15,692 nucleotides of DNA. Source: a virus (Duplodnaviria > Heunggongvirae > Uroviricota > Caudoviricetes). Numbering within the stretch: the stretch's first letter is position 1; each line of letters starts with the position of its first letter. Location of the stretch: positions 1 to 15,692 of IMG/VR virus record IMGVR_UViG_2778261417_000005. One strand, written 5' to 3'. Below, piece after piece: positions 379-15,692 of the stretch. Made by a program: the position numbers and the translations under genes. The notes under the pieces were generated by a model. The model did no database searches. It was not told where the DNA came from and saw only the letters and a program-made list of their open reading frames with translations.

Positions 379-560
379 ATATACTCGTCATACTTCAAGT
401 TGCATGTGCTGCGTTTGCGTTCGCTCACCCCAGTCACTTACTTATGTAAGCTCCTGGGGATTCACTCACTTGTCGCCTTCCTGCAACTCGAATTATTTAG
501 AGTATATCCATTTATTATCTTTCTGCGCACTTCACGGTGCGCAGATATCTGGAGCATTTG

Positions 561-2822: not shown

Positions 2823-2845
2823 AAAGCGCCATGTGAATGTAGGTC

Positions 2846-3040
<195 letters not shown>

Positions 3041-3055
3041 AATAGTTAATTGCTC

Positions 3056-4385: not shown

Positions 4386-4473
4386 GCTTTTTTATACTAA
4401 GTTGGCATTATAAAAAAGCATTGCTTATCAATTTGTTGCAACGAACAGGTCACTATCAGTCAAAATAAAATCA
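4386..4473. other. Prophage attachment site attL: lambda 15-bp core plus P' arm
   Basis: Core GCTTTTTTATACTAA at 4386-4400, preceded by attB-type host arm (…TTGAAGCCTGC) and followed by GTTGGCATTATAAAAAAGCATTGCTTATCAATTTGTTGCAACGAACAGGTCACTATCAGTCAAAATAAAATCATTATTTG, recognised as the lambda P' arm. It abuts the int stop at 4474. Confidence 0.9.
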
Positions 4474-5544
4474 TTATTTGATTTCAATTTTGTCCCACTC
4501 CCTGCCTCTGTCATCACGATACTGTGATGCCATGGTGTCCGACTTATGCCCGAGAAGATGTTGAGCAAATTTATCGCTTATCTGCTTCTCATAGAGTCTT
4601 GCAGACAAACTGCGCAACTCGTGAAAGGTTGGCGGATCCCCTTCGAAGGAGAGACCTGATGCTTTTCGTGCGCGCATAAAATACCTTGATACTGTGCCGG
4701 ATGAAAGCGGTTCACGACGAGTAGATGCAATTATGGTTTCTCCGCCAAGAATCTTTTTGCATTTATCAAGTGTTTCCTTCATTGATATCCCGAGAGCATC
4801 AACATGCAATGTTGTTGGGATGGCAATTTTTACGCCTGTTTTGCTTTGCTCGACATAAAGATATCCATCTACGATATCAGACCACTTCATTTCGCATAAA
4901 TCACCAACTCGCTGCCCGGTAACAACAGCCAGTTCCATTGCAAGTCTAAGCCAACATGGTGATGATTCTGCTGCTTGATAAATTTTCAGGTATTCGTCAG
5001 CCGTAAGTCTTGATCTCCTTACCTCTGATTTTGCAGCGCGAGTGGCTGCGACCGGGTTTGTTGTTATATGGCCTTCAGCTATAGCCTCTCGGAATGCATC
5101 GCTCAGTGTTGATCTGATTAACTTGGCTGATGCCGCCTTGCCCTCGTCTATGTATCCATTGAGCATTGCCGCAATTTCTTTTGTGGTGATGTCTTCAAGT
5201 GGAGCATCAGGCAGACCCCTCCTTATTGCTTTAATTTTGCTCATGTAATTTATGAGTGTCTTCTGCTTGATTCCTCTGCTGGCCAGGATTTTTTCGTAGC
5301 GATCAAGCCATGAATGTAACGTAACGGAATTATCACTGTTGATTCTCGCTGTCAGAGGCTTGTGTTTGTGTCCTGAAAATAACTCAATGTTGGCCTGTAT
5401 AGCTTCAGTGATTGCGATTCGCCTGTCTCGGCCTAATCCAAACTCTTTACCCGTCCTTGGGTCCCTGTAGCAGTAATATCCATTGTTTCTTATATAAAGG
5501 TTAGGGGGTAAATCCCGGCGCTCATGACTTCGCCTTCTTCCCAT
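4474..5544 (-). CDS. int: Lambda-type tyrosine integrase, 356 aa
   Basis: 356-aa ORF starting MGRRRSHERRDLPPNLYIRNNGYYCYRDPRTGKEFGLGRD…, matching lambda Int in sequence and length as recalled, with a conserved C-terminal catalytic region (…HELRSLSARLY…LLGHKSDTMASQYRDD). Adjacent to attL. Confidence 0.95.
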   Translation of the reverse strand: MGRRRSHERRDLPPNLYIRNNGYYCYRDPRTGKEFGLGRDRRIAITEAIQANIELFSGHKHKPLTARINSDNSVTLHSWLDRYEKILASRGIKQKTLINYMSKIKAIRRGLPDAPLEDITTKEIAAMLNGYIDEGKAASAKLIRSTLSDAFREAIAEGHITTNPVAATRAAKSEVRRSRLTADEYLKIYQAAESSPCWLRLAMELAVVTGQRVGDLCEMKWSDIVDGYLYVEQSKTGVKIAIPTTLHVDALGISMKETLDKCKKILGGETIIASTRREPLSSGTVSRYFMRARKASGLSFEGDPPTFHELRSLSARLYEKQISDKFAQHLLGHKSDTMASQYRDDRGREWDKIEIK

Positions 5545-5740
5545 TTCTGATCCTCTTCAAAAGGCTACCTGTTACTGGTCGATTTAAGTCAACCTTTACC
5601 GCTGATTCGTGGAACAGATACTCTCTTCCATCCTTAACCGGAGGAGGGAATATCCTGCACTCGCGTACCCATCGACGAACTGTTTCAAGGCTTCTTGGGC
5701 GTCGCTGGCGTGCGTTCCACTCCTGAAGTGTCAAGTACAT
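5522..5740 (-). CDS. xis: Excisionase, 72 aa
   Basis: 72-aa ORF MYLTLQEWNARQRRPRSLETVRRWVRECRIFPPPVKDGREYLFHESAVKVDLNRP…, matching lambda Xis as recalled. Its 3' end overlaps the int start by 23 nt. Confidence 0.9.
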   Translation of the reverse strand: MYLTLQEWNARQRRPRSLETVRRWVRECRIFPPPVKDGREYLFHESAVKVDLNRPVTGSLLKRIRNGKKAKS

Positions 5741-5765
5741 CGCAAAGTCTCCGCAATTACACGCA

Positions 5766-5786
5766 AGAAAAAACCGCCATCAGGCG
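5766..5786 (-). terminator. Putative intrinsic terminator (minus strand) just upstream of xis
   Basis: GC-only 5-bp stem CCGCC (5773-5777) / GGCGG (5782-5786) with loop ATCA. On the minus strand it is followed by a six-U tract (plus-strand A-run 5766-5772). Short stem, so tentative. Confidence 0.4.
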
Positions 5787-5947
5787 GCTTGGTGTTCTTT
5801 CAGTTCTTCAATTCGAATATTGGTTACGTCTGCATGTGCTATCTGCGCCCACAGCATCCAGTGGTCATAGCAGTCGCTGATGTTCTCGGCTTCGATAACT
5901 CTGTTGAATGGTTCTCCATTCCATTCACCTGTGACTCGGAAGTGCAT
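5779..5947 (-). CDS. Small hypothetical phage protein, 55 aa
   Basis: Hand translation of the minus strand from ATG (plus 5945-5947) to TGA (plus 5779-5781): MHFRVTGEWNGEPFNRVIEAENISDCYDHWMLWAQIAHADVTNIRIEELKEHQAA. Not in the ORF track (under the length cutoff). Its stop lies inside the hairpin above. Confidence 0.45.
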
Positions 5948-6189
5948 TTATCATCTCCATAAAACAAAACCCGCCGTAGCGAGTTCAGATAAAAGAAATC
6001 CTCGTCAGTGCGAGGATGCTGTTCATTGCTGCTATACACTTTTTTGCTCTCAACGTAAGCGGTAGCCCATTCTGTTGGGTTGGTGCAGTTGCTTTTAGGA
6101 AATGCTATTTACCCCTTAAATGTCGGCTGAAAGAGCTAAAATCCATGCAAAAAATTTACGCAATTTTGTGTATTATTGTGCAGTAAGTA

Positions 6190-6792
6190 ATGAGCTATTT
6201 TCTGCGCAAAAAATGGATGGTAAATTTGTCCGGGTCAGGAAAAATTTTATGGGCGCTAAACATGAAAAAAGATTCGTATCCTTATTTGATTTGCATGACA
6301 GTTTCAGGGCTGATCTTTATTTTCCTTTTCTTCTGGTGGCGGGCAGATATCTACAGGGTCACGTTTCTTAATCAGAGTATATCCCACTATTACATTCTGT
6401 TTAGCATGGGAATAGCTTTTCTGTTATCTCTGTTTTGGGTTAAGAAGGGGATAGTAAAACAAAGCGGCTGGAAGAGTCTGTCAGCATACCTTAAGGTTTA
6501 TGCAGGGATGTGCATATTTGCTGGATTTTTTCTGATTATACCCCTTACGACACTAACTTATTTTTTGCCTGGAGAGACATCGTCTTATGTTGCACCGTAT
6601 CGGTATACTTCCGGTAGTTCAAAAAGTTGTTCTGGAGCTGAGGTGGATGACCCCGATCTACATGAGAATATTCGCATTTGCTATCCGTATGGCAATTATG
6701 AGTACGATAATATTATCTATGTTGAAAAGAAAATTAATATATTAGGTGCGGTAGTGACATATGCACAGACCGCGCGTGATGATACTGAATGA
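6190..6792 (+). CDS. Hypothetical integral membrane protein (3 predicted TM helices plus about 75-aa C-terminal domain), 200 aa; AT-rich accessory gene
   Basis: Only plus-strand ORF inside a minus-strand operon. Hydrophobic stretches YLICMTVSGLIFIFLFFWW, YYILFSMGIAFLLSLFWV and VYAGMCIFAGFFLIIPLTTLTYFL. Visibly AT-rich codon usage. Start uncertain (ATG 6190, 6217 or 6262; none has a strong Shine-Dalgarno). Confidence 0.6.
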   Translation: MSYFLRKKWMVNLSGSGKILWALNMKKDSYPYLICMTVSGLIFIFLFFWWRADIYRVTFLNQSISHYYILFSMGIAFLLSLFWVKKGIVKQSGWKSLSAYLKVYAGMCIFAGFFLIIPLTTLTYFLPGETSSYVAPYRYTSGSSKSCSGAEVDDPDLHENIRICYPYGNYEYDNIIYVEKKINILGAVVTYAQTARDDTE

Positions 6793-6826
6793 TATAGTAT
6801 ATAGCGGGCAAGTTTTAGTTAATTTA

Positions 6827-6850
6827 TCGAGGTAATATAATTTACCTCGA
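6827..6850 (+). terminator. Candidate terminator hairpin downstream of the membrane-protein gene
   Basis: Perfect 9-bp stem TCGAGGTAA (6827-6835) / TTACCTCGA (6842-6850), loop TATAAT. The downstream tract ACTCGTTTGTTCT is only moderately U-rich. Confidence 0.35.
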
Positions 6851-7002
6851 CTCGTTTGTTCTGGTATTAATATTTCGCTTTACGACCGATTTTTATCTGA
6901 TGATATCATGCGGTTTTCATATACTGACTTACTGTCTTTTCTCCGTTAGCGATTTTCTCCTGCTCAGCGATGATTTTATCTTTGGCTTCTAGTTAATTTC
7001 GC

Positions 7003-7224
7003 TCACTTCGAACCTCTCTGTTTACTGATAAGCTCCAGATCTTGCTGGCAACTGGCACAAGTCCGACAACCCTGAACGGCCAGTCGTCTTCGTTCATCTA
7101 TCGGATCGCCACACTCACAACAATGAGTGGCAGATATAGCCTGGTGGTTCAGGCGGCGCATTTTTATTGCTGTGTTGCGCTGTAATTCTTCAATTTCTGA
7201 TGCTGAATCAATTATGTCTGCCAT
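7003..7224 (-). CDS. DksA/TraR-family C4 zinc-finger protein (lambda Orf73-like), 73 aa
   Basis: 73 aa with paired Cys motifs HCCECGDPIDERRRLAVQGCRTCASC, the CxxC…CxxC layout and CE-CG-PI-RR signature of TraR/DksA-type RNA-polymerase-binding proteins. Confidence 0.8.
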   Translation of the reverse strand: MADIIDSASEIEELQRNTAIKMRRLNHQAISATHCCECGDPIDERRRLAVQGCRTCASCQQDLELISKQRGSK

Positions 7225-7285
7225 CTTTCATTAATCCCTGAATTGTTGGTTAATACGCTTGAGGGTGAATGCGAATAATAAAAAA

Positions 7286-7300
7286 GGAGCCTGTAGCTCC
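7286..7300 (-). terminator. Candidate intrinsic terminator (minus strand)
   Basis: Stem GGAGC (7286-7290) / GCTCC (7296-7300), loop CTGTA. On the minus strand it is followed by U-rich tract TTTTTTATTATT (plus A-run 7274-7285). Confidence 0.4.
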
Positions 7301-7322
7301 CTGATGATTTTGCTTTTCATGT

Positions 7323-7604
7323 TCACCGTTCCTTAAAGACGCCGTTCAACATGCCGATCGCCAGGCTTAAATGAGTCGGTGTGAATCCCATCAGCGTTAC
7401 CGTTTCGCGGTGCTTCTTTAGTACGCTACGGCAAATGTCATCGACGTTTTTATCCGGAAACTGCTGTCTGGCTTTTTTGATTTCAGAATTAGCCTGACGG
7501 GCAATGCTGCGAAGGGCGTTTTCTTGCTGAGGTGTCATTGAACAAGCCCCATGTCGGCAAGCATAAGCACACAGAATATGAAGCCCGCTGCCAGAAAAAT
7601 GCAT
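7323..7604 (-). CDS. Hypothetical small phage protein with N-terminal Cys/His cluster, 93 aa (start uncertain; internal Met at 7538 would give 71 aa)
   Basis: ORF MHFSGSGLHILCAYACRHGACSMTPQQENALRSIARQANSEIKK… with C-x3-C-x-H-x2-C near the N-terminus. Its length equals lambda ea8.5 (93 aa, from memory) but identity is not verified. No clear Shine-Dalgarno at either start. Confidence 0.5.
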   Translation of the reverse strand: MHFSGSGLHILCAYACRHGACSMTPQQENALRSIARQANSEIKKARQQFPDKNVDDICRSVLKKHRETVTLMGFTPTHLSLAIGMLNGVFKER

Positions 7605-7614
7605 TCAGTGGTTG

Positions 7615-7806
7615 TCATACCTGGTCTCTCTCATCTGCTTCTGCTTTCGCCACCATCATTTCCAGCTTTTGTGAAAGGGATGCGGCTAACGTATGAAATT
7701 CTTCGTCTGTTTCTACTGGTATTGGCACAAACCTGACTCCAATTTGAGCGAGGCTATGTGCCATCTCGATACTCGTTCTTAACTCAACGGGAGATGCTTT
7801 GTGCAT
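7615..7806 (-). CDS. Small delta-region protein, 63 aa (lambda orf63-like by size and position)
   Basis: 63-aa [66 protein letters not shown]. It overlaps the next gene by 28 nt, the arrangement recalled for lambda orf63/orf60a. Confidence 0.55.
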   Translation of the reverse strand: MHKASPVELRTSIEMAHSLAQIGVRFVPIPVETDEEFHTLAASLSQKLEMMVAKAEADERDQV

Positions 7807-7961
7807 ACAGCTCCCCGTTTATTATTTATCTCCTCAGCCAGCCGCTGTGCTTTCAGGGGATTTCTGATAACAGAAAGGCCGGGAAATACCCAGCCTCGCT
7901 TTGTAATGGAGTAGACGAAAGTGATCGCGCCTACCCGGATATTATCGTGAGGATGCGTCAT
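7779..7961 (-). CDS. Small delta-region protein, 60 aa (lambda orf60a-like)
   Basis: ATG at 7959-7961 overlaps the exo stop (7958-7960) in ATGA fashion and gives a 60-aa product [24 protein letters not shown]… The track's 7967 start adds two codons. Confidence 0.5.
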
Positions 7962-8638
7962 CGCCATTGCTCCCCAAATACAAAACCAATTTCAGCCAGT
8001 GCCTCGTCCATTTTTTCGATGAACTCCGGCACCATCTCGTCAAAACTCGCCATGTAATTTTCATCCCGCTCAACCACGACATAATGCAGGCCTTCACGCT
8101 TCATTCGTGGGTCATAGTTGGCAAAGTACCAGGCATCTTTTCGCGTCACCCACATGCTGTACTGCACCTGGGCCATGTAAGCCGACTTTATGGCCTCGAA
8201 ACCACCGAGCCGGAATTTCATGAAATCCCGGGAGGTAAACGGGCATTTCAGTTCAAGGCCGTTGCCGTCACTGCATAAACCATCGGGAGAGCAGGCGGTG
8301 CGCATACTTTCGTCGCGATAGATGATCGGGGATTCAGTAACATTCACGCCGGAAGTAAACTCAAACAGGGCTCTGGCGTCGTTCTCGTACTGTTTTCCCC
8401 AGGCCAGCGCCTTAGCATTAACTTCCGGAGCCACACCGGTGCAAACCTCAGCCAGCAGGGTGTGGAAGTAGGACATTTTCATGTCAGGCCACTTCTTTCC
8501 TGAGCGGGGCTTTGCTATCACGTTGTGAACTTCTGAAGCGGTGATGACGCCGAGCCGTAATTTGTGCCATGCATCATCCCCCTGTTCGACAGCTCTCACG
8601 TCGATCCCGGTACGCTGCAGGATAATGTCCGGTGTCAT
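7958..8638 (-). CDS. exo: Lambda-type 5'-3' exonuclease (Red alpha), 226 aa
   Basis: 226-aa [68 protein letters not shown]…, matching lambda Exo as recalled. 4-nt overlap with bet upstream. Confidence 0.95.
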
Positions 8639-9420
8639 GCTGCCACCTTCTGCTCAGTGGCTTTCTGTTTCAGGAATCCAAGAGCTTTCACTGCTTCGGC
8701 CTGTGTCAGTTCTGACGATGCGCGAATGTCGCGGCGAAATATCTGGGAACAGAGCGGCAATAAGTCGTCATCCCATGTTTTATCCAGGGCGATCAGCAGA
8801 GTGTTAATCTCCTGCATGGTTTCATCGTTAACCGGAGTGATGTCGCGTTCCGGCTGACGTTCTGCAGTGTATGCGGTATTTTCGACAATGCGCTCGGCTT
8901 CATCCTTGTCATAGATACCAGCAAATCCGAAGGCCAGACGGGCACACTGAATCATGGCTTTATGACGTAACATCCGTTTGGGATGCGACTGCCACGGTCC
9001 GGTGATTTCTCTGCCTTCGCGGGTTTTGAATGGTTCGCGGCGGCATTCATCCATCCACTCGGTAACGCAGATCGGATGATTGCGGTCCTTGCGGTAAATC
9101 CGGCATGTGCAGGATTCATTGTCCTGCTCAAAGTCCATACCATCAAACTGCTGGTTTTCATTGATGATGCGGGACCAGCCATCAACGCCCACCACCGGAA
9201 CGATGCCGTTCTGCTTATCAGGGAAGGCGTAAATTTCTTTCGTCCACGGATTAAGGCCGTACTGGTTGGCGACGATCAGCAATGCGATGAACTGCGCATC
9301 GCTGGCATCGCCTTTAAATGCCGTCTGGCGAAGAGTGGTGATCAGTTCCTGTGGGTCGACAGAATCCATGCCGACACGTTCAGCCAGCTTCCCAGCCAGC
9401 GTTGCGAGTGCTGTACTCAT
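8635..9420 (-). CDS. bet: Single-strand annealing protein Beta (Red beta), 261 aa
   Basis: 261-aa [69 protein letters not shown]…, matching lambda Bet as recalled. Confidence 0.95.
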
Positions 9421-9425
9421 CCGTT

Positions 9426-9722
9426 TTATACCTCTGAATCAATATCAACCTGATGGTGAGCAATGGTTTCAACCATGTACCGGATGTGTTCTGCCATGCG
9501 CTCCTGAAACTCAACATCGTCATCAAATGCACGGGTAATGGCTTTTTTGCTGGCCCCGCAGCGTTGTAAATGATCGATGCAGAGCGATTCAAACAAATGC
9601 TGGGGCAGGCCTTTGTCCATGTCGTCTGCCAGTTCTGCCTCTTTCTCTTCACGGGCGATCTGCTGGTAGTGACGCGCCCAGCTCTGAGCCTCAAGACGAT
9701 CCTGAATGTAATAAGCGTTCAT
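9426..9722 (-). CDS. gam: Gam (RecBCD inhibitor), 98-aa short form
   Basis: [98 protein letters not shown], near-identical to lambda Gam with a few substitutions relative to my recollection. An in-frame TAA lies 19 codons upstream of the ATG. Confidence 0.9.
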
Positions 9723-9798
9723 GGCTGAACTCCTGAAAATGGCTGTGAAAATATCGCCCGCGAAATGCCAGGCTGATTAGGAAAACAAGAAAGGGGGG

Positions 9799-10089
9799 TT
9801 AGTGATTCAGGCCGTTACCGCGTCCGTCGAGAAAAACTTCCACGAGCAAATCACGGGTATAAGTGCGCTCGATGCCGCGATGCAGATAAAGCCGTCCGCG
9901 TAAATTAGCTGATGCAGTCCAGGTACCATCTTTGTGTTTGACCAGCATTCCTGGCATGACCGCACCTCGATTAACGGTCTGCGTTCCGTAATGTTGATGA
10001 ACCATAAAAACTCCTGCCCGTAAGCTGGGCTGCTGAACATATAAAGACTTCTGCGCGTATTCAGGCGGTGGATGGCCGCCGGTTGTCAT
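9799..10089 (-). CDS. Hypothetical small protein at the kil/cIII position (up to 96 aa; true start may be an internal Met)
   Basis: ORF with GAGG 10 nt upstream of the ATG at 10089. Its 3' end overlaps the region upstream of gam, as kil does in lambda. No recognisable N-type Arg-rich motif. Confidence 0.45.
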   Translation of the reverse strand: MTTGGHPPPEYAQKSLYVQQPSLRAGVFMVHQHYGTQTVNRGAVMPGMLVKHKDGTWTASANLRGRLYLHRGIERTYTRDLLVEVFLDGRGNGLNH

Positions 10090-10282
10090 AACTAAGCCGC
10101 CTCGTTGAAGCGACTAAGGTATGAAATGTTGAGTTAATTTCAGCTGGTCACACCGACGTTCACGCGTCCGTTTCACCCCTCGCACTCCCCGAAGCCTGCT
10201 GAAATTCAAACTGCGGATCTAAGCGGTCATCGCAACGGTGAATCAGGTGGTTGCCGTATCGTTGTGTTGTTGCGATATGGTG

Positions 10283-10326
10283 ATAATAGCTATTGCTATT
10301 GGTGATATCAATACTTATTGCTATTA
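10283..10326 (-). promoter_or_regulatory. pL-like early leftward promoter with operator-like repeats (OL)
   Basis: On the minus strand: -35 TTGATA (plus 10306-10311), 17-nt spacer, -10 TATTAT (plus 10283-10288). Plus-strand TATTGCTATT occurs at 10291-10300 (in the spacer) and 10316-10325 (upstream of -35). Palindrome AATAGCTATT at 10285-10294. Confidence 0.55.
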
Positions 10327-10447
10327 GTTGATGTGTTTTGATATTAAATGTTTGATAGCAAAAAGAATTAATTTTGTGACTTGCATCGCATAGCGATAAC
10401 TGAAGTGAGGTGTGGTGGTTTTTTGGACGGTTTGTGTGATGAGGGGA

Positions 10448-10480
10448 GGCAAAAGAAAACCCGGCACTGGGGCCGGGTTT
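10448..10480 (-). terminator. Intrinsic terminator ending the repressor-side accessory operon (tIMM-like)
   Basis: Perfect 9-bp stem AAACCCGGC (10457-10465) / GCCGGGTTT (10472-10480), 6-nt loop. On the minus strand it is followed by UCUUUUGCC. Lies 76 bp downstream of the stop at 10556. Confidence 0.6.
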
Positions 10481-10555
10481 AGATGGATAAGAAAGGGTAA
10501 TAGGGAATGAAAAATCGCTTTGCGTAATGCAAGGTGGCGAGCAGTTTCTTAAGCA

Positions 10556-10996
10556 CTAAAGAAAAAAGTACATTGATAGCTTATAAAGACCTGTTCCTGC
10601 AGCGATGATTGCTGGAACACCAAGCAATACCGCAAGCTTTGCGTCTGAAATCTTTCTATCGACAGCATCGATGGAGGGTTTTTTGGCTAGTGAATCTTTT
10701 ATTGAATCGAGTCGCTCCAGAACAGCGATCATGTTTCTGTCGATAGATTTGACATCTGTCTTAAGCTCATCAACGTCACGTCGGATATAGGACACATCAG
10801 ACTCAAGCTTTGCAACTTTCGATTCAAGCACATTATTACTCCCAGAGCCACCGCTACCACTTGATTGTAGCATAGGTACATTACCGCCAGACATACCAGC
10901 TGATTGAGAAAATGCTGCAGTGTGCAAAGATGATGATCTTGCCGCTTGTTCAAGCTTTTCAGTTAGGTTTGGAGCTTCGTAATAACCGTGTTTCAT
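10556..10996 (-). CDS. Hypothetical tail-anchored membrane protein with coiled-coil region, 146 aa
   Basis: N-terminal Ser/Gly-rich segment (SSGSGGSGSNN), heptad-like region (VAKLESDVSYIRRDVDELKTDVKSIDRNMIAVLERLDSIKDSLAKK), and a single C-terminal hydrophobic helix (LAVLLGVPAIIAAGTGLYKLSMYFFL). Start is 8 nt after the upstream gene's stop (translational coupling). AT-rich. Confidence 0.7.
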   Translation of the reverse strand: MKHGYYEAPNLTEKLEQAARSSSLHTAAFSQSAGMSGGNVPMLQSSGSGGSGSNNVLESKVAKLESDVSYIRRDVDELKTDVKSIDRNMIAVLERLDSIKDSLAKKPSIDAVDRKISDAKLAVLLGVPAIIAAGTGLYKLSMYFFL

Positions 10997-11004
10997 TGTT
11001 AATA

Positions 11005-11274
11005 TTATGACTTATTGGTTTTAGCTCTATCATGCTGATCGCGAATAAAGTCAGCGAGTTTAAGCATTAAATCTTCCGTCATGCGAATTGTTGCAATGTT
11101 GTACTTTACGTTTTCAGTGTCATTACTACCATCAGCGCCCCATTCTGTAACATGCTGAAAGAAAGATATGGAGCCTAAGCGATCGTCATCTTCCCCAAAA
11201 GATGAATATCCAAATGCATCAGCATATGCATCTACACAGTTATTTGATTTTTTTATAAGTTTTTTATCACTCAT
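11005..11274 (-). CDS. Hypothetical small acidic soluble protein, 89 aa
   Basis: ORF MSDKKLIKKSNNCVDAYADAFGYSSFGEDDDRLGSISFFQHVTEWGADGSNDTENVKYNIATIRMTEDLMLKLADFIRDQHDRAKTNKS. Shine-Dalgarno GGAAAGG about 5 nt upstream of the ATG. Starts 80 bp downstream of the repressor stop, same strand. Confidence 0.7.
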   Translation of the reverse strand: MSDKKLIKKSNNCVDAYADAFGYSSFGEDDDRLGSISFFQHVTEWGADGSNDTENVKYNIATIRMTEDLMLKLADFIRDQHDRAKTNKS

Positions 11275-11353
11275 TTTTGCCTTTCCCGTAATGTTATTTT
11301 TATAAAGAATTCTTTCAGCGCATTACCCAAAAGCCTCATCAGCACGCAGCTGA

Positions 11354-12046
11354 TTATCCGTGTTTCCTATACGTCTGCGGCATACTGCCAATAACCTTCC
11401 CGAAAATGAACACCCGGTTCATCTCGTCTTTCTCGATCGGGTCCCACGGTGAGTAGCTCTTGTTATCAGAGATAACCAGTAGCTTATCTTTCATCATTTG
11501 CAGGCGCTTTACATGGGCTGTGTCGTCGTACAGAAACGCATAGATACCATCACCGTCGAAAGATTTAACCGTGATATCAACGAACAGCAGATCACCTGGT
11601 TCGATCGTTCCTGACATGCTGTCACCGCGCACGTTAATGATGCGGATATTTTCCGCCTTCCTGCCATCGAACATGTGACGAGCATCGTCAAACGAGTACT
11701 CAACCGAGCGTAGAACTTCCACAAACTCACGGTTGATGACACCCGGTCCGGCACTGACTTCTATATCAAGAACGTCAATCTTGAAGTATTTTGAATGGCT
11801 GACAGCAGGCTTCCCTGATTGTTGACCGTCATTTCTCATCGGGCCTATGCCTGATGAGAGCCATTCTGTTCGAACACCCAATGCATTAGCTATTTCAACA
11901 ATTTTTGTTGAGCCGCGCGCGTTGCCGCTTGTCAGTCTCCAGATTGTGGGTTGAGCTACGCCAGACGCCTTTGCAAGAGCGCCTTGAGACATTCCAGATT
12001 GTTCCATCGCTAGGTTTAAGCGATCAGCAAGAGTTTCTTTTTTCAT
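11354..12046 (-). CDS. cI-type prophage repressor (N-terminal HTH plus C-terminal LexA-like S24 peptidase domain), 230 aa from the Met at 12046
   Basis: HTH segment MSQGALAKASGVAQPTIWRL. Candidate autocleavage Ala-Gly (…EVSAGPGV…). Peptidase motif VRGDSMSGTIEPGDLLFVD with downstream Lys (VKRL). The tracked start at 12082 lies upstream of the predicted pRM -10, so 12046 is preferred. Not lambda cI by sequence. Confidence 0.85.
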   Translation of the reverse strand: MKKETLADRLNLAMEQSGMSQGALAKASGVAQPTIWRLTSGNARGSTKIVEIANALGVRTEWLSSGIGPMRNDGQQSGKPAVSHSKYFKIDVLDIEVSAGPGVINREFVEVLRSVEYSFDDARHMFDGRKAENIRIINVRGDSMSGTIEPGDLLFVDITVKSFDGDGIYAFLYDDTAHVKRLQMMKDKLLVISDNKSYSPWDPIEKDEMNRVFIFGKVIGSMPQTYRKHG

Positions 12047-12156
12047 AAGTTTTAATTTATACGCTTGCGTATTGATGGTCAAAACACGTTTTGCTATTGC
12101 TTGGGTTAATACGCATTGCTATTATTCATTCATTGCAATACCAATAGGAATTGATA
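12047..12156. promoter_or_regulatory. Divergent immunity control region (OR, pRM-like leftward, pR-like rightward)
   Basis: pR-like: -35 TTGCTT (12097-12102), 17-nt spacer, -10 TATTAT (12120-12125). pRM-like on the minus strand: -35 TTGACC (plus 12077-12082), -10 TATAAA (plus 12056-12061), implying an almost leaderless repressor mRNA. Operator-like TTGCTATTGC (12091-12100), ATTGCTATT (12115-12123), palindrome ATTGCAAT (12132-12139). Confidence 0.55.
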
Positions 12157-12384
12157 ATGACAAATCAAACCATTCAACTCGCAATCAGTATTACAGGTAG
12201 TCAAAAACGACTGGCAGATCTATGCGGTGTAGCCCAACCCACAGTTTGGCGTTGGCTACACGGTGGCGGAATTGATGCCCGCTATGTAATGAAAATTGTC
12301 TCAGCCACTGGTGGAAAGATTAAACCAGCAGATATTCGTCCCGACCTCGCACCATTGTTTAACGCGAGTAATTCTGCCGCCTAA
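12157..12384 (+). CDS. Cro/YdaS-like HTH regulator, 75 aa
   Basis: ATG at 12157 with AGGAA 6 nt upstream. HTH segment GSQKRLADLCGVAQPTVWRWL. First rightward gene opposite the repressor. Confidence 0.8.
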   Translation: MTNQTIQLAISITGSQKRLADLCGVAQPTVWRWLHGGGIDARYVMKIVSATGGKIKPADIRPDLAPLFNASNSAA

Positions 12385-12408
12385 ACTGCGGCGTTAACTG
12401 ATAAGGCA

Positions 12409-12954
12409 ATGACTATGCAACCACTTACATACCAACAGACTAGCGGATTTAGCCCGACTGCGGTGATAAATCGTTCTCAAACAAAACAGGCGCCAGGCCA
12501 CGAAAAAATCCGTGATGCCGTTCGCGCCTGGTCGGCTGCAGATAATCAGGATGTTGTTGCCGCACTCATTGTGAATGAGTATCGGGAGCAGGGCGGCGGC
12601 ACCATCGATTTCCCTGATGATGTCAGCCGTGCACGCCAGAAGCTGTTCCGCTTCCTCGATAACAAATTCGATTCTGAAAAATACCGAAATAACGTGCGTG
12701 AACTGACCCCGGCAATTCTGGCGGTACTACCGCTGGAATATCGCGGCCACCTGGTTGAGCAGGATAGCTACATGGCTCGGCTGGCTGAAATGGAAAAGGA
12801 ACTCAGTGAGGCAAAACAGGCTGTCATTCTCAACGCACCACGCCACCAGAAACTGAAGGAGATGAGTGAAGGCATTGTGTCGATGTTTCGTGTGGACCCG
12901 GATTTGGCTGGTCCACTGATGGCGATGGTCACCACCATGCTGGGGGCAATATGA
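12409..12954 (+). CDS. Hypothetical regulatory protein at the cII position (possibly a YdaT-like CII analogue), 181 aa
   Basis: ORF begins 24 bp after the cro-like stop and ends overlapping the next ORF. Family assignment is from recollection of Rac/CP-933-type regions where a cro-like gene is followed by ydaT; not verified. Confidence 0.5.
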   Translation: MTMQPLTYQQTSGFSPTAVINRSQTKQAPGHEKIRDAVRAWSAADNQDVVAALIVNEYREQGGGTIDFPDDVSRARQKLFRFLDNKFDSEKYRNNVRELTPAILAVLPLEYRGHLVEQDSYMARLAEMEKELSEAKQAVILNAPRHQKLKEMSEGIVSMFRVDPDLAGPLMAMVTTMLGAI

Positions 12955-13040
12955 CAGGTTCGGAAATGGCGAAAGCCGGTCTGCGCGAACAGAACCGACT
13001 TTCAGGTGCAAATCGTAACACACTCATTGCGGGAGGAATT

Positions 13041-13970
13041 ATGGCAAACACTGCTGAGATATTCAATTTTCCAGTGCCGGATGTGGCACAAAAGGAGCGG
13101 CGCGTGGCAGATCTCGACGATGGTTATACGCGCATTGCAAATGAGTTGCTGGAAGCTGTGATGCTGGCCGGATTAACACAGCACCAGCTTCTGGTCTTCC
13201 TGGCTGTCATGCGCAAAACATATGGCTTTAATAAAAGACTGGATTGGGTGAGCAACGAGCAACTTTCCGAATTGACCGGGATATTGCCGAACAAGTGTTC
13301 TGCTGCAAAAAGCGTTCTGGTAAAGCGTGGGATTCTTATTCAGAGCGGGCGGAATATCGGCATTAATAATGTGGTCAGTGAATGGTCAACATTACCCGAA
13401 TCAGGTAAGAAAAATAAAGTTTACCTGAAAGAGGTAAATTTACCTGAATCAGGTAAGAAAAGTTTACCCAAATCAGGTAAAGGCGTTTACCCGAATCAGG
13501 TAAACACAAAAGACAAACTAACAAAAGACAATATAAAACCTTTTTCGTCCGAGAATTCTGACGAATCCTCTGACCAGCCAGAAAACGATCTTCCTGTGAT
13601 GAAACCGGATGCTGCAATTCAGAGCGGCAGCAAGTGGGGGACAGCAGAAGACCTGACCGCCGCAGAGTGGATGTTTGACATGGTGAAGACCATCGCGCCA
13701 TCAGCCAGAAAACCGAATTTTGCAGGGTGGGCTAACGATATCCGCCTGATGCGTGAACGTGATGGACGTAACCACCGCGACATGTGCGTGCTGTTCCGCT
13801 GGGCATGCCAGGACAACTTCTGGTCCGGTAACGTGCTGAGTCCGGCTAAACTCCGCGACAAGTGGACCCAGCTCGAAATCAACCGTAACAAGCAACAGGC
13901 TGGCGTGACAGCCAGAAAACCAAAACTCGACCTGACAAACACTGACTGGATTTACGGGGTGGATTTATGA
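13041..13970 (+). CDS. O: Replication initiator, O-like (iteron-binding), 309 aa from the ATG at 13041
   Basis: MANTAEIFNFPVPDVAQKERRVADLDDGYTRIANELLEAVMLAGLTQHQLLVFLAVMRKTYGFNK… resembles the lambda O N-terminus but diverges. GGGAGG at 13031-13036. Iterons lie inside the gene. The tracked start at 12951 adds 30 codons of doubtful coding. Confidence 0.85.
   Translation: MANTAEIFNFPVPDVAQKERRVADLDDGYTRIANELLEAVMLAGLTQHQLLVFLAVMRKTYGFNKRLDWVSNEQLSELTGILPNKCSAAKSVLVKRGILIQSGRNIGINNVVSEWSTLPESGKKNKVYLKEVNLPESGKKSLPKSGKGVYPNQVNTKDKLTKDNIKPFSSENSDESSDQPENDLPVMKPDAAIQSGSKWGTAEDLTAAEWMFDMVKTIAPSARKPNFAGWANDIRLMRERDGRNHRDMCVLFRWACQDNFWSGNVLSPAKLRDKWTQLEINRNKQQAGVTARKPKLDLTNTDWIYGVDL
13392..13503. repeat. 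Replication origin iterons (five 17-bp repeats) inside the O-like gene, followed by an AT-rich tract
   Basis: TTACCCGAATCAGGTAA (13392), TTACCTGAAAGAGGTAA (13421), TTACCTGAATCAGGTAA (13440), TTACCCAAATCAGGTAA (13464), TTACCCGAATCAGGTAA (13487). Each is an internal inverted repeat TTACC…GGTAA. AT-rich AAACACAAAAGACAAACTAACAAAAGACAATATAAAACC follows. Confidence 0.8.
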
Positions 13971-14668
13971 AAAACATCGCCGCACAGATGGTTAACTTTG
14001 ACCGTGAGCAGATGCGTCGGATCGCCAACAACATGCCGGAACAGTACGACGAAAAGCCGCAGGTACAACAGGTAGCGCAGATCATCAACGGTGTGTTCAG
14101 CCAGTTACTGGCAACTTTCCCGGCGAGCCTGGCTAACCGTGACCAGAATGAACTGAACGAAATCCGCCGCCAGTGGGTTCTGGCTTTCCGGGAAAACGGG
14201 ATCACCACAATGGAACAGGTTAACGCAGGAATGCGCGTAGCCCGTCGGCAGAATCGACCATTCCTGCCATCACCCGGGCAGTTTGTCGCCTGGTGCCGGG
14301 AAGAAGCATCCGTTAACGCCGGGCTGCCAAACGTCAGCGAGCTGGTTGATATGGTTTACGAGTATTGCCGGAAGCGTGGCCTGTATCCGGATGCAGAGTC
14401 TTATCCGTGGAAATCGAACGCGCATTACTGGCTGGTTACCAACCTGTACCAGAACATGCGGGCCAATGCGCTTACTGATGCGGAATTACGGCGCAAGGCT
14501 GCCGATGAACTGTCCTGTATGACCGCGCGAATTAACCGTGGTGAGGCGATACCTGAACCAGTAAAACAGCTTCCTGTCATGGGCGGTAGACCTCTAAATC
14601 GTGCACAGGCTCTGGCGAAGATCGCAGAAATCAAAGCTAAGTTTGGGCTGAAAGGAGCAAGTGTATGA
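13967..14668 (+). CDS. P: Replication protein P (DnaB helicase loader), 233 aa
   Basis: MKNIAAQMVNFDREQMRRIANNMPEQYDEKPQVQQVAQIINGVFSQLLATFPASLANRDQNE…, near-identical to lambda P as recalled and the same length. ATGA overlap with the O stop. Confidence 0.95.
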   Translation: MKNIAAQMVNFDREQMRRIANNMPEQYDEKPQVQQVAQIINGVFSQLLATFPASLANRDQNELNEIRRQWVLAFRENGITTMEQVNAGMRVARRQNRPFLPSPGQFVAWCREEASVNAGLPNVSELVDMVYEYCRKRGLYPDAESYPWKSNAHYWLVTNLYQNMRANALTDAELRRKAADELSCMTARINRGEAIPEPVKQLPVMGGRPLNRAQALAKIAEIKAKFGLKGASV

Positions 14669-14838
14669 CGGGCAAAGAGGCAATTATTTATTACCTGGGG
14701 ACGCATAAGAGTTTCTGTGCGCAGGACGTTGCTGCGGCAACAGGTGTGACAGTAACCTGCATAAATCAGGCAGCAGCTAAAATGGCGCGTGCAGGAATCC
14801 TGGTCATTGATGGTAAGGTCTGGCGAACGTTTGTTTAA
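14665..14838 (+). CDS. Ren-like ORF, apparently C-terminally truncated (57 aa)
   Basis: ATG overlaps the P stop. AAAGGAG lies 7 nt upstream. Product MTGKEAIIYYLGTHKSFCAQDVAAATGVTVTCINQAAAKMARAGILVIDGKVWRTFV resembles the N-terminus of lambda Ren (about 96 aa, from memory). The frame ends where AT-rich foreign sequence begins. Confidence 0.6.
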   Translation: MTGKEAIIYYLGTHKSFCAQDVAAATGVTVTCINQAAAKMARAGILVIDGKVWRTFV

Positions 14839-14984
14839 CGGTTAGCTACTCAGGATGATAGGGCGCGGCAAGTGAGTATGAAGCGGATTTTCAGGAATGC
14901 CATCAGAGTTTGGAAATAAAGTGGGTTTTCTAGTGGCAAGAGACTTGATAATATTTAGTTCTTTGAAGCCAAGGAGATAGGGTT

Positions 14985-15479
14985 ATGAGAAAATTTATTT
15001 TAGCCTTTGTCATAAGTGCCTCGTTTACAGCAAATGCTGGTGTAGAGAAGTTAGGGCCGTGGATAACAAAGTCTGAGATAAATAAAATGACTGACCAGAC
15101 TGACTTTGTGGCTCTTAATTTATCACCAGATTCATATAACAAAGCAGGTACTGATCGTGCAACTTCACTGGTGTTGCGTTGTAGTGATAACAAAACAGAT
15201 GCCTATTTATCATTCAATGATTATATGGGTTCGGACAACCCAAGAATTACAGTGCGGTTAGATGGCGGAAAGCCGGTCAAGAGTGTTTGGGGTGGTGGGG
15301 AAGGCGGTGATTCTGCATTTGCTCCACAACCAATACAATTTATAAAGACCTTGGCTAAGCATAAAAAAGCCATTTTTGGGTTTGAACCTTATGGATCAAC
15401 TATGCAAGTAGTTGAGTTTGACTTGTCTGAGATTGATAAGGTTGTGGAAAAAATTTCACAGTCTTGCAATTGGAAATGA
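14985..15479 (+). CDS. Hypothetical secreted (periplasmic) protein with cleavable signal peptide, 164 aa
   Basis: Strong Shine-Dalgarno AAGGAG (14971-14976) 8 nt before the ATG. Signal peptide MRKFILAFVISASFTANA with AxA site. Two Cys in the mature part (C66, C162). AT-rich. Followed by a canonical terminator. Confidence 0.75.
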   Translation: MRKFILAFVISASFTANAGVEKLGPWITKSEINKMTDQTDFVALNLSPDSYNKAGTDRATSLVLRCSDNKTDAYLSFNDYMGSDNPRITVRLDGGKPVKSVWGGGEGGDSAFAPQPIQFIKTLAKHKKAIFGFEPYGSTMQVVEFDLSEIDKVVEKISQSCNWK

Positions 15480-15496
15480 CAAAAAAATTTCATATG

Positions 15497-15520
15497 AACC
15501 CAGTTGGCGCTGGGTTTTTT
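15497..15520 (+). terminator. Rho-independent terminator
   Basis: 7-bp stem AACCCAG (15497-15503) / CTGGGTT (15510-15516), loop TTGGCG, running into a T-tract ending at 15520. An A-tract upstream gives possible bidirectional activity. Confidence 0.7.
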
Positions 15521-15562
15521 ATTTCAGTAGCCAATAATGCATTCAAAATCTCTTACTTGAGA

Positions 15563-15692
15563 GGTAATGACTCCAACTTACTGATAGTGTTTTATGTTCA
15601 GATAATGCCCGATGACTTTGTCATGCAGCTCCACCGATTTTGAGAACGACAGCGACTTCCGTCCCAGCCGTGCCAGGTGCTGCCTCAGATTC
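15563..15692 (-). mobile_element. IS1 insertion sequence, IRR-side 130 bp (element continues beyond the window end)
   Basis: GGTAATGACTCCAACTTACTGATAGTGTTTTATGTTCAGATAATGCCCGATGACTTTGTCATGCAGCTCCACCGATTTTGAGAACGACAGCGACTTCC… matches the IS1 right end as recalled, with one mismatch in the inverted repeat. Confidence 0.9.
15578..15692 (-). CDS. insB: IS1 transposase InsB, 3' end (partial; 5' part beyond the window)
   Basis: Minus-strand reading ends …[16 protein letters not shown] with TAA at plus 15578-15580, the recalled InsB C-terminus. Confidence 0.75.

Follow-up and report, generated by a model that had tools for sequence, protein, structure and literature searches.

A lambdoid prophage combining lambda-type integration, recombination and replication genes with a common non-lambda immunity region predicted to work without an N antiterminator

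Layout of the prophage and its lambda blocks

The window, that is, the whole stretch of DNA analysed (15,692 nt), covers a prophage only in part, from its left end into the early region, up to the last position, 15692 (Table 1). BLASTN of the whole window against lambda (J02459) mapped three matching blocks at 92-98% nucleotide identity, with no lambda match at 6018-6990, at 9806-13503 or beyond 14909. Homology starts exactly at 4386 (lambda 27724). Region 4386-15692 is best read as belonging to a lambdoid prophage in the E. coli lambda attachment site, of which it would form the left end together with the early region: a lambda-type Int would have integrated it there, and recombination of interchangeable modules would have built it. 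The first-pass annotation had taken Int, Xis, Exo, Bet, Gam and P to be near-identical to lambda, and their protein identities are indeed 96-99.6%; the int-gam and P blocks are closely, not distantly, related to those of lambda. Its term "lambda backbone" is overstated: it fits no more of the window than these three blocks, and the region after ren is DLP12-like rather than lambda-like in complete relatives. Gam is present in the short form (98 aa, vs. 138 in the J02459 annotation), and the insert at the b-region/ea position is low in G+C (37-39%). The mosaic is an ordinary one, joining lambda-type integration, recombination and replication genes to a common non-lambda immunity region without an N antiterminator.

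Table 1. Features of the prophage part of the window, with percentages giving identity to lambda unless stated otherwise.
Feature	Position	Strand	Remarks
att core, 15 bp, GCTTTTTTATACTAA	4386..4400	+	read from the sequence; prophage-host junction, directly after ybhC
lambda block 1	4386-6017		97.9%; att core, int, xis
int, lambda-type tyrosine integrase, 356 aa	4474..5544	-	98.9%, full length (356/356 aa)
xis, 72 aa	5522..5740	-	98.6%
non-lambda insert	6018..6990	.	99.6% identical to phage mEp332
predicted membrane ORF, 200 aa	6190-6792	+	phrog_1416
lambda block 2	6991-9805		97.1%; orf73/61/63/60a, exo, bet, gam
small early-left genes	7003..7967	-	lambda-type; proteins 93-97%
orf73, TraR/DksA-like	7003-7224	-	phrog_54
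orf61-like gene	7323-7604	-	
orf63	7615-7806	-	
orf60a	7779-7967	-	
lambda Red module	7958..9722	-	exo, bet, gam
exo, 226 aa	7958-8638	-	97.8%
bet, 261 aa	8635-9420	-	99.6%
gam, 98 aa	9426-9722	-	95.9%
kil, 68 aa	9799..10005	-	Rac KilR-family cell-division inhibitor; phrog_294, E 1e-38
untranslated pL leader, ~267 nt	10006..10272	-	conserved together with kil as one unit
left operator region and pL	10283..10369	-	repeats; OL1 10285-10300, OL2 10310-10325, OL3 10354-10369
predicted pL, TTGATA-17-TATTAT	10311-10283	-	best promoter match in the prophage, 10/12
intrinsic terminator of repressor-cargo transcript	10457..10480	-	9-bp stem, 6 GC pairs, T run
two cargo genes	10556..11274	-	rexA/rexB position; phrog_3556, phrog_4231, both unknown-function families
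cargo gene 1, 146 aa	10556-10996	-	coiled coil, C-terminal membrane helix
cargo gene 2, 89 aa	11005-11274	-	
CI-like repressor, 230 aa	11354..12046	-	Pfam Peptidase_S24 67 bits, HTH_3 28.6 bits, both exceeding their curated cut-offs
oR region	12054..12152	.	operator search; 12083-12098, 12108-12123, 12137-12152
pRM-like site, TTGACC-17-TAAATT	12082-12054	-	promoter-like match
predicted pR, TTGCTT-17-TATTAT	oR region	+	found by eye
Cro analogue, YdaS family, 75 aa	12157..12384	+	PF15943, 54.5 bits (cut-off 30); phrog_35
CII analogue, YdaT family, 181 aa	12409..12954	+	PF06254, 102 bits (cut-off 21); phrog_163, CII-like activator
O replication initiator	12951..13970	+	N-terminal half non-lambda, C-terminal half lambda; Phage_rep_O above cut-off
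origin, five iterons TTACCYGAATCAGGTAA	13392-13508		within O; own, non-lambda iterons
lambda block 3	13504-14909		92.5%; O C-terminus, P, 5' part of ren
P, lambda-type helicase loader, 233 aa	13967..14668	+	98.3%
short ren-like gene, 57 aa	14665..14838	+	85% to lambda Ren residues 1-55
moron with strong terminator	14985..15517	+	nin-region position; 164-aa secreted or lipoprotein-like ORF; phrog_1848; weak VasI match, PF11319, 26.7 bits, near cut-off
strong terminator after moron	15496-15517	+	terminator search

The control module

The repressor probably starts at ATG 12046 (230 aa) rather than being read as a 242-aa TTG ORF. Besides the Pfam match it has an Ala99-Gly100 site, Ser143 (within GDSM) and, at 179-182, a VKRL motif with its lysine, in agreement with the S24 autocleavage domain proposed earlier. 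It is 40% identical to HK022 CI, its gene matches those of the P22-like phages ST104 and BTP1 at ~77% DNA identity, and it shows no similarity to RacR. The operator motif (AATASNYATTGCTATT) has 10 matches vs. 1.85 expected, 9 of them within two operator regions that overlap the best promoter-like site. These 16-bp sites, three each at oL and oR, are the predicted repressor operators. From the pRM-like site a leaderless repressor mRNA would arise, which may continue through both cargo genes to the terminator, as in lambda cI-rexA-rexB; the terminator after rexB is the positional analogue. Of 80 related viral contigs, 69 have a homology breakpoint at 10477-10480, which coincides with this terminator. 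A PADLOC defence search of the cargo genes returned nothing significant (sole match a marginal GajA, E 0.006, 13 bits), and other genes fill this slot in relatives.

On the other side of oR, the Cro analogue (ATG at 12157) shares 32% identity with Rac YdaS and 34% with HK022 Cro. The CII analogue (179 aa with the 12415 start used in phage 4A7) is 35% identical to Rac YdaT and matches the solved CP-933P YdaT structure (8BT1, E 2e-4). YdaS and YdaT are Cro and CII equivalents (PMC5917428, PMC9986795). The gap between the two genes is 24-30 bp, depending on the start chosen (12409 or 12415), vs. 118 bp in lambda, as short as first claimed. From the Cro analogue to ren the genes are tightly packed, neighbours being 24-30 bp apart or overlapping by 4 bp, and between pR and 15496 this strand has no terminator-like site. 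O is 67% identical to lambda O overall; its N-terminal half has diverged and its C-terminal half is near-identical, lambda DNA homology restarting at 13504. O combines its own N-terminal domain and iterons with a lambda C-terminus fitting lambda P. The ren-like gene matches phrog_7054 over its full length and has TAA in place of the TAC of PhiR70_1.

To the left, Kil shows 36% identity to Rac KilR (E 9e-13) and is unrelated to lambda Kil, which gave no match; in RefSeq this 68-aa gene is annotated as a cell division inhibitor. An AGGAG site precedes its ATG at 10005, and this start sets the leader length. The whole of 9806-13503 is foreign to lambda, as proposed before: the repressor, the genes in cro and cII position, the operators and the O N-terminus are unrelated to their lambda counterparts or strongly diverged.

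These parts would make up a lambda-like switch built from other protein families. The self-cleaving, LexA-like CI-type repressor would bind the operators at oL and oR, shut pL and pR and presumably sustain its own transcript. Upon DNA damage it would be expected to cleave itself; pR would then express the analogues of Cro (YdaS type) and CII (YdaT type) along with O, P and ren, and pL would lead, in order, through the leader, the KilR-type division inhibitor and the lambda Red genes. Because the pR unit is tightly packed without a terminator-like site, and pL leads directly to leader, kil and Red, early expression should need no N. Taken as one explanation, this reading of the prophage and its switch has a probability of about 0.85. 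Gene content, boundaries, operators and the lack of N, nut and put are what the analysis demonstrates; promoter use, SOS inducibility and a read-through of the retained downstream terminators that suffices for growth are what we infer from this arrangement.

Antitermination and the pL leader

By tblastn, lambda N, HK022 Nun, cII and cIII have no counterpart in the prophage, the best N match falling in ybhJ; no ORF in 9806-12150 has an N-family PHROG or Pfam match, and no nut pair was found in the prophage. The earlier statement that N and nut are missing is thus upheld. A put covariance model based on nine sequences, which recovers HK022 putL and putR and HK639 putL at 52-97 bits, finds no put RNA in the window, the whole 4A7 genome or PhiR70_1.

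Although no antiterminator is detectable, terminator-like hairpins inherited from lambda persist in the left arm on the pL strand (7897-7875, 7302-7284, 5790-5771). The first corresponds to lambda 31264-31286, which we take to be about the mapped position of tL3. The moron, too, is followed by a strong terminator (15496-15517), and complete relatives carry terminator-like sites between P and Q. In lambda, the left-arm sites retained here are passed only with N. This implies either leaky read-through or some undetected antitermination.

An RNA-based form of the latter would place the activity in the pL leader (10272-10006), acting in cis to give a terminator-resistant polymerase in a put-like but non-homologous manner, so that the retained lambda terminators are passed without N. 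The leader occurs at ≥95% identity in 2231 of 5426 complete E. coli genomes (41%), shows no coding signal in a codon-position test and, together with kil, stands behind at least three distinct operator/promoter types. The crossover lies at the predicted transcription start, much as putL begins at +1; lambda-type terminators follow downstream, and the annotation of HK639 shows that one put, in the left operon, can be enough. However, the put model is silent here. The leader has a 9-bp hairpin (10115-10095), and its 5' 189 nt (10275-10087) fold no more stably than shuffled sequence (z-score -0.5). It shares no motif with the pR operon, and its variants are too alike to yield covariation. Control of the toxic kil gene is a simpler fit: NusG/Rho termination silences Rac kilR (PMC5793797), and the small RNA KilS derives from the kilR 5' UTR (PMC8175672). 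A terminator-resisting leader is therefore unlikely.

Decay rather than design, with N, nutL and their neighbours deleted from a now defective remnant, is still harder to accept. Defective prophages are common in E. coli, the ren gene is short and no late genes are seen in the window, but every module gene is intact, the 57-aa ren belongs to a recognised family, and the module boundaries are functional ones (transcription start, terminator, middle of O). Moreover, the identical N-less layout (kil-leader-pL ... cI-ydaS-ydaT-O-P) recurs in nine listed phage records, several with named propagation hosts, and in 717 genomes. An unrecognised protein antiterminator, encoded by a small ORF, a cargo gene or a short leader ORF (~10174-10114) that reads in frame into kil in most alleles and whose arginine-rich KRTRERR is similar to TRRRERR, the corresponding motif of lambda N, is highly improbable: no ORF has an N-family match, cargo genes vary between relatives and so cannot be an essential regulator, and in the leader ORF 19 polymorphic sites split 8:4:7 over the codon positions, with an internal TAG/CAG polymorphism, which indicates no coding constraint.

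Relatives and known systems

With lambda, the prophage shares at 92-98% DNA identity the att core, int, xis, orf73/61/63/60a, exo, bet, gam, the O C-terminus and P. It also shares the layout of the switch (3+3 operators, divergent pRM/pR, a repressor operon with cargo and terminator), whereas Kil and the iterons join the diverged or unrelated parts. Absent are the stretch of lambda N, nutL, tL1, sieB, ral, ea10 and cIII, the nutR/tR1 gap, cII and rexAB.

The Rac prophage of E. coli K-12 and CP-933P of O157:H7 likewise have YdaS/YdaT families, a KilR-family kil and no N (PMC5917428, PMC9986795, PMC8630535). The proposed "Rac/CP-933-style" module is apt for the cro, cII and kil positions, with identities to the Rac proteins of only 32-36%, but not for the repressor: RacR (158 aa, no S24) and PaaR2 stand against a 230-aa HTH+S24 protein of CI type here. 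Upstream of Rac ydaG there is a conserved leader motif of the Rac type (GTTCCGC...GGCGACAAGG), which the window lacks. HK022 and HK639 are also lambdoid, without N and with a CI-type repressor 40% identical to that of the window, and the left operon of HK639 includes gam and a KilR-type kil, as here. In contrast, both carry put RNA right after pL, and HK022 has Nun in the N position, which is empty here.

The immunity module is known and common, since nine listed phage genomes already carry it at 96-98% and it is found in 717 of 5426 complete E. coli genomes, O157:H7 included; one O157:H7 prophage has the whole module of the window at 96%. The phages are PhiR70_1, PhiR68_2, PhiR30_1, 4A7 (Bievrevirus), Lambda_4C10, D2, 1W, 3W and Perceval, which share the kil-leader-pL-operator and cI-oR-ydaS-ydaT-O-P blocks at 96.6-98.3% DNA identity. 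PhiR70_1 has a lambda-type int-xis, as here, whereas the integrase of 4A7 differs. In the full annotation of these two complete genomes no N is listed, and Q is listed in both. The window diverges from the nine phages after 14909. Their cargo between the 10480 terminator and the repressor stop at 11354 also differs, consisting of an ASCH and a 353-aa protein or of three hypothetical proteins, vs. the 146-aa and 89-aa proteins of the window.

Lambda blocks and mosaic structure of the prophage

From position 4386 to its end, the window consists of lambdoid prophage sequence, which begins with the lambda att core in the gal-bio region of the host (Table). All complete E. coli genomes surveyed match some part of the window (5426/5426), and 276 of them cover ≥80% of it at a single place. 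BLASTN against the lambda reference (J02459), proposed in the first-pass annotation as a way to map the mosaic breakpoints, delimits three blocks with identities of 92.5-97.9%; the int-xis, Red and P blocks are derived from lambda. The integration module is of the lambda type, with full-length protein identities of 98.9% for Int (356 aa) and 98.6% for Xis (72 aa). The Red module keeps the lambda order (Exo, 226 aa, 97.8%; Bet, 261 aa, 99.6%; Gam, 98 aa in its short form, 95.9%) within a block of 97.1% DNA identity, and the helicase loader P (233 aa) is 98.3% identical to lambda P. The lambda-like lengths and near-identity first attributed to these six proteins are thereby borne out. Because lambda homology stops at 9805 (9722-9805), the long form of Gam (138 aa) lacks its upstream start; as read from the sequence, only the 98-aa Gam is predicted to be produced from the prophage.

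Overall identity of O to its lambda counterpart is 67%, the C-terminal half (residues ~200 to 339) being near-identical and the N-terminal half diverged. P and the P-binding C-terminal domain of O identify a lambda replication module. Lambda origin specificity is not found: the N-terminal half of O has diverged, and the five palindromic 17-bp iterons (TTACCYGAATCAGGTAA) differ from the lambda iterons in the J02459 annotation. Lambda homology restarts directly past them.

Features of the window and their positions
Feature	Position	Strand	Remark
E. coli chromosome: end of ybhI, ybhJ, REP elements, ybhC	first 4.4 kb		
V_AS5-like element, ybhI-ybhJ intergenic	384-507	-	124 nt
REP cluster, between ybhJ and ybhC	2825-3053		
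15-bp lambda att core, GCTTTTTTATACTAA	4386-4400		immediately past ybhC
Lambda block	4386-6017		97.9% to J02459
Low-G+C insert	6018-6990		no match to J02459
Lambda block	6991-9805		97.1% to J02459
Terminator-like hairpins, left arm	7897-7875, 7302-7284, 5790-5771	-	pL strand
Control module	9806-13503		no match to J02459
kil	9799-10005	-	68 aa
pL leader	10272-10006	-	
G+C-rich hairpin	10115-10095	-	9 bp, ~90 nt before kil start
Predicted pL, TTGATA-17-TATTAT	10311-10283	-	best promoter-like match in prophage
Strong intrinsic terminator for repressor-side transcripts	10480-10457	-	upstream of pL
Two cargo genes, 146 aa (coiled-coil/membrane) and 89 aa	10481-11353		slot from terminator to repressor stop; rexA/rexB position of lambda
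Repressor	11354-12046	-	230 aa
pRM-like site, TTGACC-17-TAAATT	12082-12054	-	sequence match
Cro analogue (YdaS family)	12157-12384	+	75 aa
CII analogue (YdaT family)	from 12409 or 12415	+	
O iterons	13392-13508		
Lambda block	13504-14909		92.5% to J02459; no match beyond 14909

The insert between the first two lambda blocks (37-39% G+C) is common to phage mEp332, lies in place of lambda ea8.5/ea22 and encodes a predicted membrane protein of 200 aa on the strand opposite to the left operon. On the host side, one copy in the REP cluster meets the gathering score of Rfam for naRNA4 (60.7 bits). The ybhI-ybhJ intergenic element matches Rfam V_AS5 along its entire length; the score of 46 bits is short of the gathering score (96), and the element is probably an enterobacterial intergenic repeat.

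The control module, its relatives and its cargo

The left operon, from a predicted start near 10272, comprises a 267-nt leader, kil with a good ribosome-binding site, gam, bet and exo. Kil falls in the KilR family of Rac (phrog_294, E 1e-38; 36% identity to KilR, E 9e-13). Two copies of a 16-bp motif overlap the predicted pL, with a third upstream. For the motif, AATASNYATTGCTATT, the window has 10 matches where 1.85 would be expected, with five copies at 10285-10369 and four at 12083-12158; the clusters mark three putative operators on each side, and one further match with 3 mismatches lies inside cro. The pRM-like site would start the repressor transcript at about its ATG (12046). The right operon, on the + strand, encodes the YdaS protein and, 24-30 bp further on, the YdaT protein, followed by O, P and ren, all three of which overlap the gene before them by 4 bp. 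The ren gene is short: a TAA in place of the TAC of PhiR70_1 limits it to 57 aa (14665-15517 region). Past 14909 the sequence departs from both lambda and PhiR70_1, with an ORF of 164 aa, secreted or lipoprotein-like by a weak match to VasI, that has its own strong terminator at 15496-15517.

The repressor combines an HTH_3 domain (PF01381, 28.6 bits) with a Peptidase_S24 domain (PF00717, 67 bits), both above cut-offs, and the autocleavage domain noted earlier is confirmed by this match and by the motifs SAGPG at residue 98, GDSM at 141 and VKRL at 179. Assigned by motif, these fit a LexA-like Ala-Gly cleavage site and a Ser/Lys catalytic pair, and the prophage is probably SOS-inducible through putative RecA-stimulated self-cleavage of the repressor. 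The protein shares 40% identity with HK022 CI, and its gene ~77% DNA identity with the repressors of the P22-like phages ST104 and BTP1. The repressor, the cro- and cII-position genes and kil share no significant similarity with their lambda counterparts; protein comparison agrees with the first-pass annotation that the first three of these, together with the N-terminus of O, differ from lambda.

The Cro analogue is a YdaS protein (PF15943, 54.5 bits; cut-off 30) encoded on the other strand, divergently, with its start ~110 bp from that of the repressor. Directly after it, the CII analogue is a YdaT protein (PF06254, 102 bits; cut-off 21) that matches the solved CP-933P YdaT (8BT1) at E 2e-4. 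In Rac-like prophages and CP-933P, YdaS and YdaT are regarded as the counterparts of Cro and CII (PMC5917428, PMC9986795, PMC8630535). The earlier description of the module as Rac/CP-933-style therefore holds for kil, ydaS and ydaT, by family matches, but not for the repressor, which has no BLASTP match to RacR at E ≤1. The CP-933P-type YdaT operator TTGATTN6AATCAA is absent at the ydaS 3' end. The sequence TTGATAATGACAAATCAA at 12151-12168, which lies across OR1 and the start codon of cro, is one mismatch away from it and may be a YdaT site, the total for the pattern being not above chance. Members of the YdaT family differ in their recognition helix (PMC9986795).

The module is already known rather than new, and the prophage is of a common lambdoid kind that displays textbook mosaicism. 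Its kil-leader-pL and cI-to-P blocks are 96.6-98.3% identical to those of PhiR70_1, PhiR68_2, PhiR30_1, 4A7, Lambda_4C10, D2, 1W, 3W and Perceval; in 4A7 and PhiR70_1 the complete annotation includes Q and lacks N. The predicted immunity is that of the 4A7/PhiR70_1 group, not that of lambda, 434, 21 or phi80, and the identity of the module is useful for annotation. At ≥80% coverage, cI-ydaS-ydaT is present in 717/5426 complete E. coli genomes (~13%), including an O157:H7 prophage (96%); ~1500 further genomes match it only in part, as would be expected of a related module whose specificity region differs. The boundaries were surveyed in 80 viral contigs encoding an identical Kil. Homology to the window ends at the terminator (10477-10480) in 69 of the 80, and a few have operators of other types, with the change falling at the predicted transcription start or just downstream.

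The two cargo genes are common to six of these 80 contigs. Elsewhere the slot holds an ASCH protein and a 353-aa protein (4A7), three hypothetical proteins (PhiR70_1), a BamE-like lipoprotein (strain TUM9757), a SIR2-family protein (an O157:H7 strain) or, in relatives, a HipA-like protein or other genes. With a stretch close to mnt in Salmonella phage UPF_BP1, part of the slot DNA shares 77% identity. By analogy with the lambda rex position, the slot behaves like a variable cargo hot spot for accessory genes that would be expressed in the lysogen. The cargo genes are rejected as known defence systems: PADLOC yields no more than a marginal GajA match (E 0.006, 13 bits), which was not counted.

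Absence of N, nut and put

In tblastn searches, lambda N, HK022 Nun, cII and cIII have no match in the prophage, and no ORF of at least 40 aa on either strand of 9806-12150 matches a Pfam or PHROG N family, which upholds the original claim that no N gene lies between pL and kil. The cro-ydaT gap of 24-30 bp, first noted as 24 bp, leaves no room for a nutR/tR1 region. Beyond chance, the pL leader and the pR operon have no motif in common. HK022 and HK639 are lambdoids that lack N and use put RNA. A covariance model (R1) was built from nine put sequences (HK022 putL and putR, HK639, phiEt88, CobraSix, S9-5, UPF_BP1, PDP110P2 and PdC23). Three known sites searched with it (HK022 putL, HK022 putR and HK639 putL) score 52-97 bits, and with default filters it has no match at E ≤10 in the window, the whole 4A7 genome or PhiR70_1; with filters off, the best score is 10.4 bits, inside the repressor gene. 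A put-like RNA in the module is rejected on these results. In the whole window, Rfam 15 gives no match at E ≤1 in the prophage part. Since homology, motif, R1 and Rfam searches are all without match, the original claim of a control region without N/nut stands.

Retained terminators and the pL leader

The lambda-derived left arm keeps three terminator-like hairpins on the pL strand (Table). The first, 7897-7875, corresponds to lambda 31264-31286, which we take to be about where tL3 was mapped. Terminator-like sites also lie between P and Q in 4A7. Lambda passes such terminators with N, and its left arm is N-dependent. The records of phages with the module name propagation hosts, though the phages have no N. 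In the simplest reading, the replication and Red genes would need no antitermination in this layout, and partial read-through would suffice for the remaining genes; the + strand of the right operon carries no terminator-like site before 15496. Because the terminators are kept yet N, nut and put are lacking, the phages may instead use an undescribed way through them, for which the conserved, non-coding, kil-linked pL leader would be the best candidate; we consider this improbable, at roughly one chance in ten. As a natural hybrid of a lambda left arm and N-less control, the prophage could show how far lambda-type early operons need antitermination.

The leader is found at ≥95% identity in 2231/5426 E. 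coli genomes and moves together with kil. It is non-coding: its 19 polymorphic sites are split 8:4:7 over codon positions, and its sole ORF contains a stop/sense (TAG/CAG) polymorphism. By analogy, control of the toxic kil gene would be a sufficient explanation of its role, with parallels in the NusG/Rho silencing of Rac kilR (PMC5793797) and in the KilS small RNA from the Rac kilR 5' UTR (PMC8175672). The AgvB and Pas small RNA papers deal with the late-promoter region rather than with pL. Several results speak against a special role of the leader: no homology to the Rac kilR 5' UTR or KilS was found, it does not resemble put, its variation is too low to reveal covariation, and as a stable structure its 5' 189 nt (10275-10087) do no better than shuffled sequences (z-score -0.5). 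The small ORF (10174-10114, - strand) contains KRTRERR, with the arginine-rich look of N proteins, and runs in frame into kil in most alleles; in the window it has a TAG at 10116. As the polymorphism lacks coding constraint, with no codon-position bias and a TAG/CAG change, this likeness is probably due to chance.

The leader hairpin ahead of kil is followed by UAGUUAU. Of the 11 sequence variants with changes in its stem, 10 retain the pairing, and the hairpin could serve as an attenuator or mark a processing site.

Outside the window, at least 120 viral contigs (loci L015-L021 and L104-L223) carry a conserved leader motif, GTTCCGC-N5-7-GGCGACAAGG, ~45-50 nt past the predicted pL start (CATCG...) and 5-15 nt ahead of the ribosome-binding site of the first gene, which is kil or another gene. 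A model of it, R2, has no match in the window, and homology of the leader studied here to this motif of other kil-bearing prophages is rejected; the model matches Rac of K-12 just upstream of ydaG at E 0.004 (locus L103, 8457-8518, - strand). The motif matches no Rfam family. Two length forms change both sides together and one variant replaces A-U with G-C, and the motif is a candidate for an undescribed RNA element in Rac-like early-left operons.
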